Below the pieces are notes generated by a model. The model searched no databases, was not told the origin of the DNA, and was given only the letters and a program-made list of their open reading frames with translations. Positions 10,011 to 19,480 of a DNA stretch of 64,000 nt are shown here, in pieces (position 1 is the stretch's first letter; each line of letters opens with the position of its first letter). Origin of the DNA: Candidatus Binatia bacterium. GTDB lineage: Bacteria > Desulfobacterota > Binatia > Bin18. The stretch covers positions 1-64,000 of the forward strand of contig CAXXHG010000040.1 in assembly GCA_963666315.2 (NCBI GenBank), written 5' to 3'. The position numbers were made by a program, and so were the translations under genes.

Positions 10011-10805
10011 ATGGGACAACTTGATAATAAAATCGCTATCATTACCGGATCCGGTCGAGGACAAGGTTTGGTTGCCGCACGTTTGTTTGCCTGAGAGGGC
10101 GCACGGATAGTCGTTAATGACCTGGATGCCGGATCAGTTGATGCCGCCGTTGCATCTATTAAGGACGCTGGAGGTGTAGCGGTCGGTGCGATCGGCGACG
10201 TCTCCAAAGCTGCTGACGTGCAGGCCACCCTCCAGACGGCCCAGGATGCCTTTGGCGGATTTGACATTCTGTATAATAACGCGGGTATCGGCTACTCGGC
10301 CACGCAGCGCTTCGGCATTGCCATGAGCGATGTTGTGAATTGCACTGAAGATGACTGGCATCGCATTTTGGACATCAACGTCGGCGGGATTTTTCTGTTT
10401 TGCAAATACGGAATTCCTAAGCTGATCGAACGTGGCGGCGGGATTATTATTAATACCGCCTCTATCGCCGCTTTGCGGGGTGGCGCTGACGCGCATGCCT
10501 ACACCGCCAGTAAAGGTGCGATTCTTGCCCTGACCCGCGCCGTTGCCGTGACGTATGGACCGAAAGGCATCCGAGCGAATACCCTCTGTCCGGGCGTGAT
10601 CGATACCGAGATGATCCACGCTGCCTTGATCGACAAGAATGACATTAGTGAGACCCTCGCCCGGAGTACGCCGCTCAAACGCAATGGCAGGCCTGAAGAG
10701 GTTGCCGATGTGGCTCTCTTCCTGGCAAGCGATCAGTCACGCTTTGTCACCGGCGAAGCGTTTGCCGTAGACGGTGGCATTATCCAAAGCATTGGTCTGT
10801 CCTAA
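10011..10805 (+). pseudogene. SDR oxidoreductase with an in-frame TGA at codon 28
   Basis: MGQLDNKIAIITGSGRGQG..LFA*EGA (TGA 10092-10094); the rest is intact with NNAG and YTASK. Confidence 0.8.
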
Positions 10806-10832: not shown

Positions 10833-11780
10833 ATGGAGCAGGAACAACTCGTCAAAGTGTTTAAGACCGCGGTCCTGGCCCGCCGCTTTGAGGCGAAGAT
10901 CGTAGAGCTGGCTATGGCGGGTGAACTCGCGCCCTCGCTGCATGTCGGCGCAGGCCAAGAGGTGGCGCAGATTGCGGCCATCGAGGCACTCAATCCGGAC
11001 GACTATATTTTGTACGGCCATCGTGGACTGGCGTATATGATCGCCCGTGGCGTCAGCTTGGCCGACATGCTGGCCGATTTTGCGGGCAAGGAAGGTGCAA
11101 CGAGTCGCGGCAAGGGTGGCGTCATGCATGTAGTGGACGTACCGAAGGGAATTCTTGGTGAGAGCGGTACCGTGGGGGGCGGTTTTGTAATCTCGGTCGG
11201 GGTAGGCATGGCCCTTAAGCGTAAGCAGCCGGGCAAGGTGGTAGTCTATTTCTTTGGTGACGGGACATCCAACCGTGGCACCTTCCACGAGTCCCTGAAC
11301 TGGGCTGCGGTACAGCAGTTACCGTGTATATACTTCTGCGAGAATAATGGTTTTGCGGTTTCCGTACCGACCAGTCGCTCGACCTCGGTGGAAAATATCG
11401 CCGATCGCGCCGCTGGTTATGGCGTGCCTGGGGTGGTGATTGACGGCAACGACCCCCTGGCTGTGCACGAAGTCATGCAGCAGGCAGTCGCACGCGCGCG
11501 CGCCGGCCAAGGACCAACGTTGATTGAAGTCAAAGTCACCCGCCTGAAGGGCCATTATGTGGCAGATCAGCAGGAGTATCGTGCAGACCGCGACACAGTC
11601 GCAGAAAAAGATCCTTTACCCAAACTGCAGCAAACGCTTCTGGACAGAGGTGCGCTCAGCCAACAAGATCTCGCGGATATTGCGGCTGATGCTGATCAGC
11701 AGATCGATGCAGCAGTGGAAACAATGCGGGGAGCGCCGCTGCTTGGACCGGAAGTGGCTCTTCAAGATCTCTATGCTTAG
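10833..11780 (+). CDS. TPP-dependent 2-oxoacid/acetoin dehydrogenase E1 alpha subunit
   Basis: GQE, HRG, GKGGVMH, GDGTSNRGTFHESLN..ENN TPP motif, RLKGHY. Confidence 0.92.
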   Translation: MEQEQLVKVFKTAVLARRFEAKIVELAMAGELAPSLHVGAGQEVAQIAAIEALNPDDYILYGHRGLAYMIARGVSLADMLADFAGKEGATSRGKGGVMHVVDVPKGILGESGTVGGGFVISVGVGMALKRKQPGKVVVYFFGDGTSNRGTFHESLNWAAVQQLPCIYFCENNGFAVSVPTSRSTSVENIADRAAGYGVPGVVIDGNDPLAVHEVMQQAVARARAGQGPTLIEVKVTRLKGHYVADQQEYRADRDTVAEKDPLPKLQQTLLDRGALSQQDLADIAADADQQIDAAVETMRGAPLLGPEVALQDLYA

Positions 11781-11791
11781 GAAAGGCGGAT

Positions 11792-11816
11792 AGGGATTAG
11801 AGGTTGGGGGTTGGGG
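11792..11816 (+). repeat. G-rich 7-bp tandem repeat array (left flank of four-helix-bundle gene)
   Basis: agggatt agaggtt gggggtt gggg. Confidence 0.75.
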
Positions 11817-11821
11817 AAGGT

Positions 11822-12211
11822 ATGGAGAAAACCTCAAAGATCAGTGGTTTCCGCGACCTCCGGGTGTGGCAAGGAGGGATGGACTTGGTGGAACAAGTAT
11901 ACCGGCTAACACGAGAGTTTCCAAAGCATGAGCTGTATGGTTTGGTGGGCCAAATGCAAAGGGCCGCTGTTTCGGTCCCTCTAAATATCGCGGAAGGTCA
12001 TACGCGCGATTCTAGCAAAGAATATCTCCGTCACCTCTCGATAGCTCGCGCATCCTTGGCTGAACTGCAAACACAACTTGAGATTGCCGAACGCCTTCAG
12101 TATTGCTCCTCTCAAAATCTTAGCCAACTGCTCAGCCAGTCTGACACGTTGGCCAGGCAACTTTCCGCATTGCGGAATGCTCTTCTAAAGGCGCTGACCC
12201 CTAATCCCTAA
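11822..12211 (+). CDS. Four helix bundle protein (23S rRNA IVS-protein family)
   Basis: FRDLRVWQ, FPKHELYGL..QMQRAAVSVPLNIAEG, HLSIARASLAELQTQLEIA. Confidence 0.92.
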   Translation: MEKTSKISGFRDLRVWQGGMDLVEQVYRLTREFPKHELYGLVGQMQRAAVSVPLNIAEGHTRDSSKEYLRHLSIARASLAELQTQLEIAERLQYCSSQNLSQLLSQSDTLARQLSALRNALLKALTPNP

Positions 12212-12223
12212 CTCTCAACCCCT
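12196..12223 (+). repeat. C-rich 7-bp tandem repeat array (right flank, inverted relative to left)
   Basis: gacccct aatccct aactctc aacccct; contains the gene's TAA stop. Confidence 0.75.
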
Positions 12224-12236
12224 TCTAGGAGTTTTT

Positions 12237-13217
12237 ATGCCGACAATTACCTATAGTCAGGCGATCAATCAGGCCCTGGCCGAAGAAATGCAGCGCGATG
12301 AGGACGTTATCCTGTACGGTCAAGATGTGGCCGTGTGGGGCGGCATCTTCAAGGTCACGCAAGGGCTGCTGGAAAAATTCGGGCCAGACCGCGTATTCGA
12401 CTCACCGATCTCAGAAAATGTGATGGTCGGTGCCGGTGTCGGCGCAGCCTCGATGGGCCTGCGGCCAGTGGTCGAACTCCAGTTTGCCGATTTTATTATC
12501 ACCGCAGGTGATGAAATATTCTTTAAGGCCGGCATGTGGCGCTATATGCATGGCGGGGCGTATACCATTCCGCTGGTTGTTCGCGGGCCGTCCGGAGGGT
12601 CGGGTTTTGGGCCCGAGCACTCGGCCTGCCCAGAGGCGTTCATCATGCACTCGCCGGGTTTGCTGTGTGCCGTGCCTTCAACGCCGGAAGATGCCAAAGG
12701 CTTACTCAAACAAGCCATTCGACTCAATAATCCGGTTGTCTATTTTGAGCATAAGCTGTTGTACCAAACGCGGGGCGAAGTGCCGGACGGCGATGTCACT
12801 ATTCCGTTTGGCAAAGCCGTGATCCGGCGCGCAGGCGAGGCTGTGACCATCGTTGCCTGGCAAGACATGCTGCGTCGCACGCTCAAAGCTGCTGATCGAC
12901 TCAGTCAAGAAGGCATTGAGGTCGAGATTATCGACCCGCGCACGCTCAATCCCTTTGACCGCGAGACCATTATTGAGTCGGTCAAAAAGACGGGGGCCTG
13001 CATAGTGGTCGAGGAAGCCTATCGGACGCTGGGTGTTGGGGCAGAAATCGGCGCCATGCTGTTGGAAGACGCGCTGCCGTATATGGATAAGCCCTTCAAA
13101 CGTTTAGCCATTCCTGACGTACCGATTCCAACCAGTCAACATCTGGTCGACGCTATCGTCCCCTCTGTGGACGATATCTACCAAGCAGTCAAAGAACTTA
13201 AAGACCTTGCCGACTGA
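12237..13217 (+). CDS. TPP-dependent dehydrogenase E1 beta subunit
   Basis: DSPISE, GLRPVVELQFADF, GPEHS, NPVVYFEHK, IDPRTLNP. Confidence 0.92.
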   Translation: MPTITYSQAINQALAEEMQRDEDVILYGQDVAVWGGIFKVTQGLLEKFGPDRVFDSPISENVMVGAGVGAASMGLRPVVELQFADFIITAGDEIFFKAGMWRYMHGGAYTIPLVVRGPSGGSGFGPEHSACPEAFIMHSPGLLCAVPSTPEDAKGLLKQAIRLNNPVVYFEHKLLYQTRGEVPDGDVTIPFGKAVIRRAGEAVTIVAWQDMLRRTLKAADRLSQEGIEVEIIDPRTLNPFDRETIIESVKKTGACIVVEEAYRTLGVGAEIGAMLLEDALPYMDKPFKRLAIPDVPIPTSQHLVDAIVPSVDDIYQAVKELKDLAD

Positions 13218-13224
13218 GGCTGAC

Positions 13225-14892
13225 GTGCCGAATACTACAGTCTTGATGCCCAAACTCGGTCAAGCTATGACCGAGGGCTCAGTCGTTCTGTGGCACCGAA
13301 AAGACGGTGAACGGGTTGAAGCCGGGGCAGTTCTGGTCACGGTTGAGACCGACAAGGCGACCTATGACCTTGAAGCTACCGCCAGCGGAACAGTCCATAT
13401 TATTATCCAAGAAGGCGAAGAGGTTCCCATCGATACCGTCATCGCCGAGATTGGAGACGCGCCAGTACAGACGGCTTCGGCGGCTCCTGTTGCCCCTCAA
13501 GCCGTCGTTCAGCACAAACAAACGTCGTCCAAGCAGCGTGTCCTGGCTTCTCCGAAGGCCAAACGACTTGCCGCTCAACGGGGCATAGACCTGTCTACGC
13601 TCACGCCCTCTGGTGCAGATGGAATTATCTCAGCCTCAGATGTAGAGAACGCGGTTGCAGCGCCAAAGACACCGGCCTTGGCTTCAGGTTCTGCTGTGAG
13701 CGGACGTATCGAACGGGAACGTCGAAAGCTCATCGGCATGCGGAAAGCTTCCGCTCGACGGGTGCAAGAAGCGTGGCAAACAATCCCGCATATCGTCCAG
13801 ATGATAGACTTGGACGCCACGGCGCTGCGCGCTATGCGAAAGCAGCTTAAGCAAGAAGCGCCTGCGATCACGCTCAACGACGTGCTCTTACACACGGCTG
13901 CTCGTGTCCTGACCGGGCTGCCGGATCTCAACGGGACGATCCAGAATGATGAGCTTGTTCTGTACGATGGCGTTGATATCGGCTTTGCCGTAGGTTCTCC
14001 GCGAGGCTTGCTCGTCCCGGTCATTCGTCGTGCAGACACGCTGTCTATGGCCCAGTTGGTAGCAGAAAGTCAGCGGCTCATCGAAGCCGGCCGTACTGGC
14101 CAGCTGGGTCCGGATGATATGGGCAACGCCAGTCTGACGGTCTCTAATTTGGGAATGTTCGGTATCCAAGCGGGAACGCCGGTGATCAATCTCGGCGAGC
14201 CGATTCTCGTTTTTGTCGGTGCTGTTGAGGATCGACCGGTGGTGGTTAACGGACAGATCGTCGTCCGGCCTATGATGACGCTGAGTATTGCCTATGATCA
14301 CCGCATTGCAGATGGCGTTGCGGCTTCTCGGTTTAGCCAGGGTTTGAAACAGGCGTTGGAGAATCTAGAGTCTGAGGTTCAAAGTTCCAAGCCTGTCCTG
14401 AGCGCAGTCGAAGGATCGAAAGTTCAAAGTCTACCCCCCAACCCCCAATCCCTAACTCCTAATCCCCAAGACAGGCTTGGAAAGCGGGAGTTGCACTCTG
14501 TTTCAGCCGGAGAAAGATATGAGGTTCAGGTCCACAGTCAAAACCATGTGTGGACGCTCGATGAGCCAAACAGCGATGGTGGAAACGACGCAGGGCCGGA
14601 TCCCGTCACCGCCTTCTTGGGCGCCTTGCTCTCGTGCATGACTATCGCGTTTAAAGCGGCCGCCCGCCGCCGCAAGGTTACGATTGATCGCATTGAGGGG
14701 CATATCAACGCGACTCCAAAAGGCCATGTGAAAGAGATTGTATTGACTTTAGAAGTCTGGAGTCCTGCGGCTGAGCAGGATTTGAAGATCTTGCTCGAAC
14801 GAGCAGAACGCGGGTGTTATGTGAGTGGGGTGCTGAAGCCAGAGATTAATTTTGCCGTTGAACTTACCATTCACTCGACGGAAGCTTCATAG
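13225..14892 (+). CDS. Dihydrolipoamide acyltransferase (E2) fused to a C-terminal OsmC/Ohr-family domain
   Basis: Lipoyl domain MPKLGQAMTEG..VETDKAT; subunit-binding domain ASPKAKRLA..GSGADG-like; catalytic YDHRIADG; then DEP..GGNDAGPDP..LGALLSCMT and AERGCYVS (two OsmC Cys). Confidence 0.88.
   Translation: MPNTTVLMPKLGQAMTEGSVVLWHRKDGERVEAGAVLVTVETDKATYDLEATASGTVHIIIQEGEEVPIDTVIAEIGDAPVQTASAAPVAPQAVVQHKQTSSKQRVLASPKAKRLAAQRGIDLSTLTPSGADGIISASDVENAVAAPKTPALASGSAVSGRIERERRKLIGMRKASARRVQEAWQTIPHIVQMIDLDATALRAMRKQLKQEAPAITLNDVLLHTAARVLTGLPDLNGTIQNDELVLYDGVDIGFAVGSPRGLLVPVIRRADTLSMAQLVAESQRLIEAGRTGQLGPDDMGNASLTVSNLGMFGIQAGTPVINLGEPILVFVGAVEDRPVVVNGQIVVRPMMTLSIAYDHRIADGVAASRFSQGLKQALENLESEVQSSKPVLSAVEGSKVQSLPPNPQSLTPNPQDRLGKRELHSVSAGERYEVQVHSQNHVWTLDEPNSDGGNDAGPDPVTAFLGALLSCMTIAFKAAARRRKVTIDRIEGHINATPKGHVKEIVLTLEVWSPAAEQDLKILLERAERGCYVSGVLKPEINFAVELTIHSTEAS
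14362..14469 (+). repeat. In-frame composite repeat forming the E2-OsmC linker
   Basis: agttcaa-type heptamers around cctgtcctgagcgcagtcgaagga, followed by aaccccc/aatccct heptamers. Confidence 0.7.
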
Positions 14893-14945
14893 GTGAGTGA
14901 AGGAGGTGTAAAGCCTTCTCAGCAAAACTGTGCGTTGTGTTATTG

Positions 14946-15032
14946 CCGTTCCCCTTCGACAGGCTCCGGGCGAACGGAAATAACGGCGCTGGACACAGCT
15001 CGTTCGTGCTGAGCCTGTCGAAGCATGAACGG
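14946..15032. repeat. REP-like palindromic repeat (CCCTTCGAC-GCTC-GG family)
   Basis: cccttcgacaggctccgggcgaacgg and the inverted ccgttcgtgctgagcctgtcgaagc; related motifs at 14392, 17389 and 40970. Confidence 0.7.
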
Positions 15033-15156
15033 GCACGAATGCACAACTTCAATAGAGACATGCCAGCAGCGTGCGCTATGCACGCGTCAAATCCCACCAG
15101 CAGTGTAGCGCAATCGAAATCGAAGGACCTGCGGCTGCGGTTGTCCGTTTAGGTCC

Positions 15157-16027
15157 TCAGCAGGTGAGAAGGCGTATCCGAAACTCCTCGTATGAATAAA
15201 CGTAGCGCTTAGCATGTCCTAAAGGTGCGATGCGCTTAAAGAGTTGTCTCTGAGGGGGATCCGCAGTGACAAAAACAAAGCCAGGAGGACCGCTGAGGTA
15301 GACAGATTGCATTACATCAACGTATCCAGGAGCTCTGCTACCGCCTCTATATTTTTTATCTTTCATAGCTCTATCGAAGATGTTTATGCCCAGGGCCCCA
15401 GAAAGAAAACGCCAAGCTTCAACTTTCTGAAGAACAGATCTGGATGATGGTTGAGACACACCAGAGAATCCACAAGCTGCAAAAAGAGGAGAAAAGAGAT
15501 TTCCTAGTCTATCGATATGAGCGAACCCGCTACGGATAAATTCACTAGAAGAATTTTTGAGTCTCGGGTCGATAGGAAGAGCCTTGGGCGAGTGAACGAA
15601 TAAGATCTGATCGGATGTTTTCAACGGTCTCACGGAAAAGTTGCTCTTTGTGCTTGTTACTGGAACGGAGACATTGTTGAGCCTCTTCGGTGATAATCCC
15701 TGGATCGTTGATAACAGTCCAGAGACCATCATTAGCAGTGCTCACGACCATCTCAGAATCACCCTGTATAAAAGACTTGAGGGATCTCTCTAAGATCTCT
15801 CCACAATGAGCGAGCGGTCTAGATCCACACGAAAGCCTTTTCGCCATTTCCAGAAGACTGGTCCGTCTGACTCCATCCGTTGTGGTAGAAATTTCGTCAA
15901 TATTGTGCTGACTAATACGTACGAGGGGGTCAGAAGAAGAAAGAAACTGGACGAGCTTATTCGACTGGGGGTCATCGTGGAGATGATTTAGGGCACTGGT
16001 GTCGAAATAGACATTCACAAGAGTCAA
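15157..16027 (-). pseudogene. AT-rich hypothetical gene with PIN-like N-terminus, split over two overlapping frames
   Basis: VYFDTSALNHL..ISQHNIDEI; ORFs 15545-16027 and 15157-15732 overlap; C-part has DVMQSVY..FVFVTAD. Confidence 0.5.
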
Positions 16028-16066
16028 ATGTACATCCTTCTCTGCCCTACCAAGTAGATGCTAATC

Positions 16067-16356
16067 TCATAACGGTCTTGCTTCTTGTAGTATCCGGTCT
16101 CGAATCCGCTGACGGAGCCCTTTTTCCGTGACAACATCTACCGGATGGCCAAGAAGCTCTTGCAGGTCCATCAACAGACCCCCCAGATTAAGGAGGCTCC
16201 GCCCTCTCTCTAGGTCGACGAGGAAGTCGATATCATTATCGGGTCTGACCTCGTCACGTGCGACCGATCCAAATGCACGAACGTTGCGAGCGCCATGGCG
16301 AGCTGCAATCTCGGAGATTGCTTCACGTTTTTTTTGACCAACTCAGAAAGACTCAT
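16067..16356 (-). pseudogene. MntA-type minimal nucleotidyltransferase, frameshifted in an A8 run
   Basis: [42 protein letters not shown]; ATG at 16356 is out of frame across the 16328-16335 homopolymer. Confidence 0.75.
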
Positions 16357-16424
16357 CAGGAGACCACTGTATCAAAGTCTGAGAGAAATTTCCTTACCTT
16401 GGCCGAGAGAAAATCCCTCTGGAT

Positions 16425-17360
16425 TTACGCAGTTAACGCTGCCTTCAACCCTGCGGCCGCCTCTTCAAGCGCCTGCCCTGCTGGTTCGATCACCTTGGCC
16501 ATTCCTATAAAGCCATGAATTAACCCTTCAAAACATTTGTATTCAACTGCTACCCCTGCTTCGCGGAGTTTAGCTGCATACGCTGCTCCCTCGTCCCGCA
16601 ATGGATCGTATTCTGCAGTGGCAACAAAGGCGGGGGGGAGAGAGCGGCATTGGTCGGTCGATGCTCGTAGCGGTGAAGCTAATGGATTTTGTCCGTCTGC
16701 ATCACTGGCGAGGTATTGATCCCAGAACCACACCATCATCTCAGTTGTTAGAAAATAGCCTTCTGCATTTTCTTTGTGTGACGGCATATCAAATGCGTGA
16801 GCCGTGACCGGGTACATGAGAAGTTGATAGACGAGAGAAGGCAGGCCACTTTCTTGCGCCTTTAGGGTAACCGCCGCTGCCAGGTTAGCACCTGCGCTTT
16901 CACCACCAACAGCAATCCGAGAGGCATCTCCGTTTAAGGCTGCCGCGTTTAACGCTACCCACCGTGTCGCAGCGTAACAGTCGTCGACCGCTGCCGGAAA
17001 CTTGTCCTCTGGTGCGAGTCGATAGTCTGCGGAGATAACCATACAGGCGGCGAGATTGGTAAACGCACGGCAGGACGCATCTACAGTATTAATGCTGCCG
17101 ACGACCCAGCCGCCGCCGTGGAAATAGACAAGAATAGGAAATGGCCCCTGACCCTCAGGCGTGTAGATACGGATGAGTTGTTTGCCTGCAACGCCGGGGA
17201 TCATCCGATCTTCGACATTGTCAACCGGCTCGGGGTCATCTGGAACGCCGCGCATCGTTTCCATGGCGCTGCGCGCTTCTTGCGGCGACATATGGTGGAG
17301 TGGCGGCCCCGCAGCGGCCATTTGCTCGATAGCTTTTTCGACTTGTGGATGCAGTGGCAT
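16425..17360 (-). CDS. HSL-family esterase/lipase (alpha/beta hydrolase)
   Basis: HGGGW, DYRLAPE, GESAG, DPLRDEG, HGF. Confidence 0.92.
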   Translation of the reverse strand: MPLHPQVEKAIEQMAAAGPPLHHMSPQEARSAMETMRGVPDDPEPVDNVEDRMIPGVAGKQLIRIYTPEGQGPFPILVYFHGGGWVVGSINTVDASCRAFTNLAACMVISADYRLAPEDKFPAAVDDCYAATRWVALNAAALNGDASRIAVGGESAGANLAAAVTLKAQESGLPSLVYQLLMYPVTAHAFDMPSHKENAEGYFLTTEMMVWFWDQYLASDADGQNPLASPLRASTDQCRSLPPAFVATAEYDPLRDEGAAYAAKLREAGVAVEYKCFEGLIHGFIGMAKVIEPAGQALEEAAAGLKAALTA

Positions 17361-17375
17361 ATGGTTTCCTTTCAC

Positions 17376-17421: not shown

Positions 17422-18204
17422 CTACGTGAGAAAATTGCGGACGAGTTGGGTAAATTCATCCGGCTTTTCTAAGGGTGGACAGTTCCCGCACTGCGGCAGA
17501 ATCTCTAAGCGTGAACCGGATATGGCTTGCTGGTATAATTCGCCACACTCGAGTGGCACGATCCGGTCGTCTTGTCCCCACACGATCAGCGTTGGCATAC
17601 GTACCCGGCCCAACAGGCCCGGCAGGCTGGGGCTGAACATATACGGCTTCCAACAGTAGCGAACGACGGTTTCCTGATTGCGTGCCCGGACTTCTCGTTC
17701 TTCCTTGGACGGCTTGTCTGCAAACAGCTCTTCATATTCGGGGATCTGCTGCAGATCGAAATAGGCAAGTTGCCGGGTCCCTTGCAGGCCGTGCAGAAAG
17801 ATATCGGCGATCTCCCCCTGCTGAGGTTGAATACCGGCGGCATCAATCAAAATAAGACCGTCAAGGCTGTGGGGCGACATGACTGCCATTTCCGCTGCCA
17901 GCCAGCCGCCCATGAAGTGTCCGGCTAGTGTGACGTTCTTGAGATCGAGTTGATCCAGGAGCCACAGGCTGAACCGAGCTAGGTCGGCAAAGGTTTCTAA
18001 CCATGGCGGGCGTTCGGACTTGCCAAAACCGGGACACGTCGGGGCGTATACAGTGAAATGCTCGGCCAGCTGTGCATGGTAACGCCGCCAACCCAGATTG
18101 CCTTCGATGCTGTGCAACATGACGAGGGGTTGCCCCCGTCCGCCTTTGAGGAAGTGGATGTTAGCTCCCGCGACCTCAACAAAGTGTTCTTCGTATGCTG
18201 TCAT
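17422..18204 (-). CDS. Alpha/beta hydrolase-fold protein lacking catalytic Ser and His
   Basis: PGFGKSERP, GHFMGGW (for GHSMGG), PTLIVWGQDDRIVP, CGNCPPLEKP (for CGH). Confidence 0.85.
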   Translation of the reverse strand: MTAYEEHFVEVAGANIHFLKGGRGQPLVMLHSIEGNLGWRRYHAQLAEHFTVYAPTCPGFGKSERPPWLETFADLARFSLWLLDQLDLKNVTLAGHFMGGWLAAEMAVMSPHSLDGLILIDAAGIQPQQGEIADIFLHGLQGTRQLAYFDLQQIPEYEELFADKPSKEEREVRARNQETVVRYCWKPYMFSPSLPGLLGRVRMPTLIVWGQDDRIVPLECGELYQQAISGSRLEILPQCGNCPPLEKPDEFTQLVRNFLT

Positions 18205-18265: not shown

Positions 18266-19480
18266 CTACGGCGCTTGCTCAAAAGGCCCCGGCAGATCCA
18301 GCTCTTTGCCCATTTCCTGCAGGGCGGGCAGGACGTCATGTTCCATCAACGCCAGGCAGCGCATGGTGTCCGCATGCCCGATGGTGCCGTCATTCGTCCA
18401 CACACCAAGAATGCCTGGACGGACCACACTCAGCACCGCCCGTAATTTTTTTATGACTGTATCCGGATTACCGACAATGACCCGATTGCTTTCGACTACC
18501 TTTTGCCAGCCGGCGGAATCGACGCCGCCGTACAGCGGGTCAGGCCGCAAGGCATAGCGTTTGTATTGATCCACAATGCGTTTGGCTCCTTCGCGTGAAT
18601 TATATCCAGGCGGGGCCATGAAATCGCCCGGCAAAGGCACGCGGCCGACACCGGCATTGCCTATCAAAAATCCTTTGCCGACCTCATACGCCTTTTCGTC
18701 TGTGTCCTGCACGTGTACGCGGACCAAATAGCCGAAGTTCTGCGGACCCGGCTCATAGCCGGCCTCTTTTGCCGCCTCGGTGTAGATCTCCGTCAGGTCC
18801 AAGGTCACCTGCGGGTCGGTTTCAAGGTAGATATAGGGGTAATGATGGCGGGCGCACCAGATTAATGTCTCAGGGCTGCCGACGCCGGGAACCCAGATCG
18901 GCGGATGTGGCTGTTGCAGCGGACGCACAAATGGGTTGACCACTCGAAACTGATAATGCTTGCCTTCCCAGCGAAACGGACCCGGGGTGGTCCAGGTTTT
19001 GATGATCAGGTCATGCGCCTCTTGAAAGCGCTCTCGATTATAGACTGGGTTGGTATTGGTCGCCCAGCTTTCGATGCCTGTCCCGCGCACAAAGCCGGAT
19101 ACGAGGCGTCCTCTGGAAATCATATCGATTTCCGCCAGCTCTTCTGCCAGACGCAGGGGGTTATCGAAGATCGGCAGAGGATTGCCGAGCAAGACGAGCT
19201 TGGCCCGTTTGGTCGTCCGGGCCAGAATCGCGGCTTCGAGATTCATGGCCGCGCCCATACAGGTTGGGGTATTGTGATGCTCGTTCAGCATCAGACCGTC
19301 AAAGCCGACTTCTTCGGCATACTCGTATTCGTCGAGATAGGCGTTATAGAGATCTGCACCTAAGGCCGGATCAAAATGGGAATTTGAAAATGTGAGCCGG
19401 ACGGAGCTGCGAAAGCTCTGGCGAACATCCTGTTCCGAGTAGTCCACATATGCCCGTTCCGTAAACCGCATGAGAAACAT
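18266..19480 (-). CDS. LLM-class flavin-dependent monooxygenase
   Basis: GFDGLMLNEHH, NPLRLAEELAEIDMISRGRLVSGFVRG, PLQQPHPPIW. Confidence 0.9.
   Translation of the reverse strand: MFLMRFTERAYVDYSEQDVRQSFRSSVRLTFSNSHFDPALGADLYNAYLDEYEYAEEVGFDGLMLNEHHNTPTCMGAAMNLEAAILARTTKRAKLVLLGNPLPIFDNPLRLAEELAEIDMISRGRLVSGFVRGTGIESWATNTNPVYNRERFQEAHDLIIKTWTTPGPFRWEGKHYQFRVVNPFVRPLQQPHPPIWVPGVGSPETLIWCARHHYPYIYLETDPQVTLDLTEIYTEAAKEAGYEPGPQNFGYLVRVHVQDTDEKAYEVGKGFLIGNAGVGRVPLPGDFMAPPGYNSREGAKRIVDQYKRYALRPDPLYGGVDSAGWQKVVESNRVIVGNPDTVIKKLRAVLSVVRPGILGVWTNDGTIGHADTMRCLALMEHDVLPALQEMGKELDLPGPFEQAP

Follow-up and report, generated by a model that had tools for sequence, protein, structure and literature searches.

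A conserved E2-OsmC fusion in Candidatus Binatia and its possible role as a lipoyl-linked redox module

What is the function of an OsmC-type domain that is covalently attached to a lipoylated acyltransferase? This question is raised by a plus-strand operon (positions 10833-14892) in a 64,000-nt stretch of contig CAXXHG010000040.1 (C40) of a Candidatus Binatia bacterium (assembly GCA_963666315.2), and we refer to this whole stretch as the window. The operon encodes the E1alpha, E1beta and E2 subunits of a thiamine pyrophosphate (TPP)-dependent dehydrogenase, and its E2 gene continues in frame into a domain of the OsmC superfamily. A sequence-only reading of the window had suggested that this domain replaces dihydrolipoyl dehydrogenase (E3), which would turn the complex into a self-contained peroxidase. 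Judged from the sequences compared here, the E2::OsmC fusion is genuine, ancient and under selection. With moderate confidence, we consider the fused domain to be a redox domain that works through a dithiol and most likely reduces hydroperoxides; it would be tethered to its own dihydrolipoyl reductant and leave E3 to act in trans.

The E2::OsmC gene (13207-14892, plus strand) overlaps the end of the E1beta gene and encodes 561 amino acids when TTG 13207 is used as start codon, or 555 amino acids from GTG 13225, which corresponds to the database copy P0001. Pfam searches of the open reading frames (ORFs) of the window, in which all domain calls exceeded the gathering scores, identified an N-terminal lipoyl domain (Biotin_lipoyl, aa 11-82, 13237-13452; 59.6 bits, E-value 2.6e-16), a peripheral subunit-binding domain (E3_binding/PSBD, aa 112-147, 13540-13647; 43.3 bits at a cut-off of 23.7, E-value 4.1e-11) and a CAT-like acyltransferase domain (2-oxoacid_dh, aa 170-388, 13714-14370; 227.4 bits), which matched solved E2 cores with E-values down to 6e-54. 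The lipoylatable lysine (K50, 13354-13356) is located in an ETDKA motif and was invariant in 30/30 aligned relatives, and the catalytic histidine (H365, 14299-14301) is part of a DHRIADG motif of the DHRxxDG type. Pfam detected the PSBD in 7/8 distant relatives, and in several relatives this domain is doubled. These domain matches and motifs confirm the E1alpha, E1beta and E2 assignments of the sequence-only reading, and according to them the E2 part keeps all that is needed to make dihydrolipoamide.

The acyltransferase domain is followed by a stop-free Pro/Gln-rich linker of about 44 residues (14371-14502) and by the OsmC-family (YhfA-like) domain (14503-14892, Pfam OsmC aa 459-551; 50.4 bits at a cut-off of 27.5), which carries one cysteine in LSCMT (C477, 14635-14637) and a second one in RGCYVS (C537, 14815-14817). 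E2 and OsmC parts form a single open frame without a stop at the junction, and in this respect the original reading, which had listed both cysteines, was correct. It had also seen no separate start for the OsmC part. This holds for ATG 14519, which is out of frame, but not for an in-frame TTG (L429, 14491-14493) that follows a purine-rich stretch and at which the OsmC part could in principle have an internal start of its own. The AlphaFold model of the full-length protein had a mean predicted local distance difference test (pLDDT) value of 63.9, with the lipoyl domain below 50, and was not used for conclusions on the domain arrangement.

Of the 120 best-matching database relatives, which are 61-100% identical, 118 contain all four Pfam domains (Biotin_lipoyl, E3_binding, 2-oxoacid_dh, OsmC), the architecture for which the sequence-only reading had proposed a search. 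A scan with one genome per species yielded 32 related loci, most of them titled Candidatus Binatia and one Phenylobacterium. Among the 24 loci containing both parts in full, the E2-OsmC frame was uninterrupted from stop to stop in 23, and the sole exception (L039) showed several frame breaks. A stop between E2 and OsmC in orthologous genes, which had been named as an observation that would speak against the proposal, was absent from these 23 loci. When 61 relatives of the window's genome were screened for a fused-type domain (at least 58% identity), it was present in 32 genomes including the window's own, among them 30 of the family's 36 other members and the sister family (1/1), and in none of the 23 genomes that represent other families of this class. 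In 29 of the 32 genomes with the domain, the open frame comprised at least 500 amino acids. The shorter frames were seen in G213 and G237, where they presumably reflect contig ends, and in G224, where a TAG lies inside the match. Six family members with 2.3 to 4.4 Mb of sequence, one of them (G214) 65% complete, lack the fused-type domain, so that the E2::OsmC operon looks accessory.

Outside the starting genomes, no fusion was detected in samples of 201 genomes of the phylum and 301 alphaproteobacteria, and its distribution is patchy. Searching the OsmC part against 1.84 billion representatives gave 393 matches at E <=0.001, and the best 150 of these included 21 full-length proteins with lipoyl, subunit-binding, catalytic and OsmC domains as well as about 11 pieces consisting of catalytic and OsmC domains, which are presumably fragments. 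All 21 full-length distant fusions, which share 25-61% identity with the window protein, keep the lipoyl lysine, the catalytic histidine and both cysteines. Linker length differs between relatives (25-45 residues), and in a co-occurring strain variant 34 nt replace 79 nt of the linker, which makes it 45 nt shorter and keeps the frame. Since the frame is kept while the linker drifts, selection maintains a single polypeptide.

One might argue that an error in sequencing or assembly, or a stop codon lost recently in this genome only, has merged what are separate E2 and osmC genes. The broken frame of L039, the TAG in G224 and the existence of free-standing relatives with 50-53% identity would be compatible with such an artefact. 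However, dozens of independent assemblies and three distant lineages show this frame, and this finding refutes the idea, to which we assign a negligible probability. Contigs from public runs that are identical to the window also span the junction, although they may originate from the window's own source sample. None of the sequencing runs containing the sequence was listed as RNA; a contig of run X19, which may be an RNA run, crosses the junction and was not taken as a sign of expression. A mis-binned contig was considered as well, since within the phylum sample the fusion was found in the window's genome only. We rejected this explanation because the tetranucleotide profile marks the contig as a typical part of the genome (rank 28 of 43), because the housekeeping E2-E3 region shares synteny and 88-94% identity with its counterpart in a genome that contains the closest fusion locus, and because of the frequency of the fused type among the other family genomes (30/36).

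Automatic annotations name the fusion proteins E2 subunits, and some names given by the Joint Genome Institute (JGI) appear to carry a second, shortened label. We found no paper describing an E2-OsmC fusion in the full-text literature, the coverage of which leaves out most subscription journals. In one Binatia chromosome (L047, 8383-10258), E1alpha is split over two frames and the E2 match covers the first 88 residues only, without OsmC; this operon looks decayed.

To which branch of the superfamily does the fused domain belong? Its AlphaFold model (pLDDT 96.8) retrieved OsmC-superfamily structures only in Foldseek, with a probability of 1.00. The highest template modelling (TM) scores were obtained for YhfA of E. 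coli (1ml8, 0.83, root mean square deviation 2.0), AQ1549 of Aquifex (0.82) and MPN625 of Mycoplasma (0.80), followed by TM0919 of Thermotoga. These YhfA-like structures scored 0.78-0.83, whereas values of 0.59-0.68 were calculated for Ohr and OsmC proper. In a profile search of solved structures, the best match was the C-terminal part of 9wo1, a protein of 400 amino acids named 'Osmotically inducible protein C' (E-value 1.2e-29), and structural-genomics OsmC-like proteins and then Ohr and OsmC followed. The length of 9wo1 and the position of the match suggest that it belongs to a family of esterase-OsmC fusions. The best NCBIfam model was NF041052 (OsmC-related (seleno)protein), with which the isolated domain scored 60.0 bits and the whole protein 54.6 bits, short of its cut-off of 95.

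C477 and C537 represent the sole invariant columns when 47 members of the OsmC subfamily, both fused and free, are aligned, and they align with cysteines of solved OsmC-like proteins. Score, fold and two cysteines at the peroxidatic and resolving positions place the domain in the OsmC/Ohr superfamily (PF02566). Neither in the subfamily alignment nor among the distant fusions is there an invariant or nearly invariant column for Arg or Glu, the catalytic residues that accompany the peroxidatic cysteine in the Ohr/OsmC subfamilies. An OsmC fold with two conserved cysteines and without Arg and Glu is what defines the YhfA-like group in the consulted part of a review, which describes no activity for it. 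Thus, the OsmC/Ohr-type domain of the sequence-only reading stands as a two-Cys member of the superfamily but is YhfA-like and does not belong to the Ohr or OsmC subfamily. The invariant cysteine pair argues strongly for thiol-disulfide chemistry, with an oxidant that we infer.

Alpha/beta hydrolase, glyoxalase and BLH-phosphatase domains are further fusion partners of the same OsmC subfamily, of which tandem copies occur as well. Three two-domain proteins of 241-258 amino acids (P0162, P0201, P0161) combine a Biotin_lipoyl-like domain without a lipoylatable lysine with an OsmC domain. In the window's genome, a free paralogue (155 aa, 41% identical; contig C5, L004 426-1803) is encoded directly after a membrane-anchored TlpA/AhpC-TSA-like thiol-disulfide oxidoreductase, and most family genomes contain a similar free paralogue.

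The absence of E3 from operon and window, from which the replacement idea had started, was confirmed by a whole-genome search with TIGR01350, in which none of the 14 matches was located on contig C40. The E1 genes adjoin E2::OsmC and E3 lies outside the cluster. The genome carries three E2 genes and one true E3 above the curated cut-off (567 bits, contig C8), which directly follows the E2 gene of that contig. The other E1alpha-E1beta-E2 operon (C18, L051 4768-9503) is followed by the Si-specific NAD(P)+ transhydrogenase SthA (NF003585, 601 bits) and not by E3. When matches of at least 60 bits to the genome's own E3 were sought within about 10 kb, no E3 was found near the fusion at any of the 32 Binatia-type and alphaproteobacterial genome loci, nor at 20 metagenome loci of a very distant lineage with a GC content of 63-66%. 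At five of these 20 loci, E1beta and E1alpha genes lie 1.2-2.3 kb downstream of E2::OsmC on the opposite strand. Operons that always include E3, the second observation that had been named as contrary to the proposal, were thus not encountered among the loci examined. We found neither E3 nor OsmC near four sister operons that lack the fusion (identity of E2 by segment 37-54%). Co-occurrence with E3 was tested in five fusion genomes including the window's own. In each of the other four, a true E3 is encoded at another site, which in one closed chromosome is about 2 Mb distant. One E3 shared in trans is the rule in these organisms, and such sharing is common in many bacteria. Because there is one E3 for three E2 genes and because unfused operons are E3-less as well, the missing adjacent E3 carries little weight.

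These data bear directly on the idea that the OsmC domain replaces E3. The complex would then be a self-contained substrate:hydroperoxide oxidoreductase, each turnover of which would need a peroxide or another OsmC-linked acceptor and would yield no NADH. The lack of a neighbouring E3 at the 32 genome loci and at the 20 metagenome loci of the distant lineage, and the retention of the fusion alongside intact E1/E2 catalytic features agree with this concept. However, the C18 operon and the four unfused sisters likewise lack an adjacent E3, which makes its absence uninformative, and a true E3 was present in 4/4 other fusion genomes. Moreover, the PSBD is kept and sometimes doubled, the fused domain is devoid of the Arg and Glu of fast peroxidases, and we reason that peroxide supply could not match the flux of a catabolic-looking cluster. 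A single true E3 in trans, E3-less operons as the norm and a retained PSBD leave the proposed replacement unsupported, and we consider it unlikely. A full E3-free cycle, in which OsmC dimers occupy the two-fold contacts of the core and re-oxidise the lipoyl arms with hydroperoxides, a 2-oxoacid or acyloin is burnt to destroy peroxides and the YhfA-like clade generally acts as a lipoyl-dependent oxidant sink, appears similarly improbable.

The position of the OsmC domain in the E2 core bears on all readings of the fusion. According to the consulted section of the corresponding report, dimeric domains of up to 100 residues have been attached by engineering to the C-terminal end of the E2 60-mer of Geobacillus, with the aim of stabilising the shell from inside. 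One such construct is PDB entry 8eqn, an E2p in which about 84 residues follow the core. According to the literature consulted, members of the OsmC family function as homodimers. By analogy, the natural OsmC domain may be located at two-fold contacts, possibly inside the core. The lipoyl arm reaches the E2 active site from outside the core, and the inside is accessible to coenzyme A (CoA). A linker of 25-45 residues might let the OsmC domain reach the outside of the core. The engineered E2p domains, the 8eqn construct and the homodimeric state of OsmC-family proteins would also be in line with a purely structural role, in which a dimeric C-terminal domain locks neighbouring E2 trimers without any chemistry. 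From such a scaffold one would not expect two cysteines as the sole invariants of 47 subfamily members, kept in addition in 21 distant fusions, and we regard this role as very improbable.

According to the reading we favour, a dithiol redox domain tethered to its reductant, the lipoyl group on Lys50 would be reductively acylated by E1, and the E2 active site (His365) would then move the acyl group to CoA and leave dihydrolipoamide behind. The dihydrolipoyl arm would re-reduce the C477-C537 disulfide, which would have been formed most likely by an organic hydroperoxide or by H2O2, so that a sink for peroxides or another oxidant would be coupled in cis to the donor of its electrons. The genome's single dihydrolipoyl dehydrogenase, acting in trans, would still carry out the bulk of arm re-oxidation and could also drive NADH electrons backwards to the OsmC domain. 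We infer both the thiol-disulfide exchange between arm and OsmC domain and the identity of the oxidant. The sequence-only reading had named dihydrolipoyl groups on E2-type proteins as the reductants of Ohr and OsmC peroxidases. This is borne out by the consulted parts of the literature, in which lipoylated proteins, but neither thioredoxin nor glutathione, reduce the disulfides of Ohr and OsmC. The TlpA-like neighbour of the free paralogue, which would indicate a thiol-redox setting, was counted in favour of our interpretation. The operon is also neighboured by a gene for a luciferase-like flavin monooxygenase (see below). Enzymes of this class form flavin hydroperoxides, and this neighbour was counted toward a peroxide-directed function.

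A number of observations weigh against this interpretation, and the peroxidase assignment, which is a prediction from sequence and fold, is uncertain. The Arg and Glu of Ohr and OsmC are conserved neither in the 47-member subfamily alignment nor in the distant fusions, and the nearest structural relative, E. coli YhfA, belongs to a group the activity of which is not described in the consulted part of the review. Moreover, a family of esterase-OsmC fusions (PMC5113044), the sole fused OsmC family for which we found an assay, exhibited no peroxidase activity with H2O2 or cumene hydroperoxide when assayed with dithiothreitol. The Rosetta-stone support that the Biotin_lipoyl-like/OsmC two-domain proteins might have provided was downgraded because their lipoyl lysine is missing. 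Finally, if the domain were located inside the cage, access of the arm would depend on the 25-45-residue linker.

Some of these data would also fit a redox-active cysteine pair that is not involved in peroxide detoxification. Such a pair might constitute a switch or sensor that gates the complex, repair or protect the lipoyl arm, or form a disulfide relay with CoA-linked disulfides or a thioredoxin-like protein. The YhfA-like subfamily, for which the review gives no known activity in the part consulted, and the inactive esterase-OsmC family both point in this direction. The subfamily is fused to many unrelated enzymes and to lipoyl-like domains without lysine, as would be expected of a module of general use in regulation or relay. 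In addition, the free paralogue adjoins a TlpA-like oxidoreductase, and the C-terminal position may put the domain on the CoA side of the core. On the other hand, the locus encodes no obvious alternative thiol partner, we know of no regulatory precedent, and all characterised superfamily members named in the consulted parts of the cited papers reduce hydroperoxides. Taken together, a redox function of this kind is possible but doubtful.

Lipoyl-dependent Ohr/OsmC proteins are already known, and what is new here is that an E2 donor and an OsmC acceptor of the uncharacterised YhfA-like branch occur in one chain. Ohr of Xylella is reduced via lipoylated SucB/PDHB and Lpd (Cussiol et al. 2010, as cited in the literature consulted). 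As in this system, the dihydrolipoyl group of an E2-type protein would serve to reduce the disulfide of a two-Cys OsmC-superfamily protein. In contrast to Xylella Ohr, which is a free peroxidase that receives its electrons from NADH via E3, the domain described here is a covalent part of the E2 chain, falls outside the Ohr and OsmC subfamilies and has no invariant Arg or Glu. The OsmC of Trichomonas vaginalis, which also lacks Arg and Glu, was reported to be active with lipoylated H and L proteins (Nyvltova et al. 2016, as cited in the literature consulted). This activity is disputed, since it was reportedly not reproduced by another laboratory with other reductants. For Hyphomicrobium, a preprint proposes, in the section consulted, that a GcvH-like lipoyl protein encoded near osmC is its electron donor. 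In both cases the partner of an OsmC protein without the canonical Arg and Glu is, or is proposed to be, a lipoylated carrier, but the two are separate proteins and neither acyltransferase nor E1 is involved.

The structures of the YhfA group (1ml8, 2egt, 1lql, 1vla), the best structural matches of the fused domain, share with it the two cysteines and the lack of Arg and Glu but represent free-standing proteins of about 135 amino acids with 14-21% identity. The esterase-OsmC family resembles the fusion in that OsmC forms the C-terminus of another enzyme, but there the partner is an alpha/beta hydrolase and not a lipoyl protein. Like Gram-positive-type pyruvate dehydrogenase (PDH) and acetoin dehydrogenase (AcoABCL), the operon combines E1alpha, E1beta and an E2 composed of a single lipoyl domain, a PSBD and the DHRxxDG core. 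Similar to the AcoABCL setting, a short-chain dehydrogenase (SDR) resembling butanediol dehydrogenase and a hydrolase resembling part of AcoC are encoded nearby, both likenesses being below cut-off. Unlike these systems, the cluster is devoid of E3, its E2 carries the additional C-terminal OsmC domain and its E1alpha scores below the equivalog cut-offs. In the AhpC/AhpD/DlaT/Lpd relay of Mycobacterium tuberculosis, the lipoyl arm of an E2 (DlaT) also donates electrons for peroxide reduction. Unlike the fusion, this relay involves a separate peroxiredoxin and an AhpD adaptor and depends on E3 and NADH.

The role of E2 lipoyl groups as reductants of Ohr and OsmC is accepted and indirectly supported, and a natural, long-conserved fusion provides independent genomic evidence for it. 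In addition, the fusion extends the partnership between lipoyl groups and OsmC proteins to the YhfA-like branch. With reductant and acceptor in one polypeptide, it offers a compact test system for the coupling of substrate and peroxide turnover, for a bypass of E3 and for the site of a passenger domain on the E2 core. Should the domain prove to be no peroxidase, the fusion would still point to a redox accessory of 2-oxoacid dehydrogenase complexes that had gone unrecognised.

The E1 genes of the operon are less readily assigned to a substrate. E1alpha (10833-11780, plus strand) is a TPP-dependent subunit of the heterotetrameric PDH/acetoin type (E1_dh, E-value 1.9e-70). Its best NCBIfam model (TIGR03182) gave 260.7 bits at a cut-off of 393.85, and it scored under every NCBIfam equivalog cut-off. 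E1beta (12237-13217, plus strand) consists of Transket_pyr and Transketolase_C domains and reached 335.6 bits with NF006667 (cut-off 321). From these matches, we propose that the operon encodes a putatively working E1alpha-beta/E2 acyl-transferring dehydrogenase, the substrate of which would be a PDH-like 2-oxoacid or an acetoin-like acyloin.

The conserved cluster is headed by the SDR gene (10011-10805, plus strand; Pfam adh_short_C2), which is syntenic with the operon in at least 24 related loci. In the window, this gene is broken by an in-frame stop (10092-10094; ARLFA*EGARIVV), and in the relative L016, which reads ARLFAKEGARIVV, a Lys occupies the stop position. The stop may reflect either a pseudogene or a sequencing error. 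Conserved divergent neighbours on the minus strand are a LipP1-family hormone-sensitive lipase-type esterase (16425-17375), an alpha/beta hydrolase (17422-18204) and the luciferase-like monooxygenase (18266-19480, 404 aa). The hydrolase has the hydrolase part of AcoC as its best model. With SDR, esterase, hydrolase and monooxygenase, the cluster looks like a catabolic route, as far as can be predicted from its genes. The luciferase-like monooxygenase is 92-96% identical in the eight related loci listed, and 22 loci pass a 45%-identity filter. Since E2 is about 70% identical where the monooxygenase reaches 92-96%, the latter is far more constrained than the dehydrogenase genes. The distance between the OsmC stop and the esterase gene amounts to about 1.5 kb in the window (14893-16424) vs. 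about 50 bp in relatives. This spacer contains two overlapping minus-strand ORFs without a Pfam match, and at its start lies a very high-copy repeat (about 14843-15000), for which a summed contig depth of 652 was determined in run X1.

A cassette that the sequence-only reading had omitted is inserted between the E1alpha and E1beta genes (11791-12222, plus strand). It encodes a four-helix-bundle protein of the 23S_rRNA_IVP (Avd-like) type (gene 11804-12211, 135 aa; PF05635, E-value 4.8e-38; TIGR02436), and its ends are inverted G-rich repeats of 14-26 nt (11791-11816 and 12197-12222; pairs I1 and I5, direct repeat family D1). The cassette was detected in 7 of the 32 related loci. In variant contigs of runs X1 and X19 it is absent, and 16-17 other letters are found at the joint (11773 to 12237). 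The genome contains only two homologues of the cassette gene.

A copy of the cassette-end repeat is also present in the E2-OsmC linker (14436-14466). Here, a 66-nt segment, which encodes SAVEGSKVQSLPPNPQSLTPNP, is bordered by the arms of a 16-nt inverted repeat (14385-14400 and 14467-14482). The contig depth over the bin containing the linker insert was about 7x that of its neighbours, and this suggests a dispersed repeat that is translated in frame. We also considered whether the linker could be a footprint left by the four-helix-bundle cassette. This idea was rejected, given that there are only two cassette homologues in the genome and that the fusion long predates the lineage. For the same reasons, the linker repeat is a passenger that a tolerant linker carries in frame, and not the cause of the fusion.

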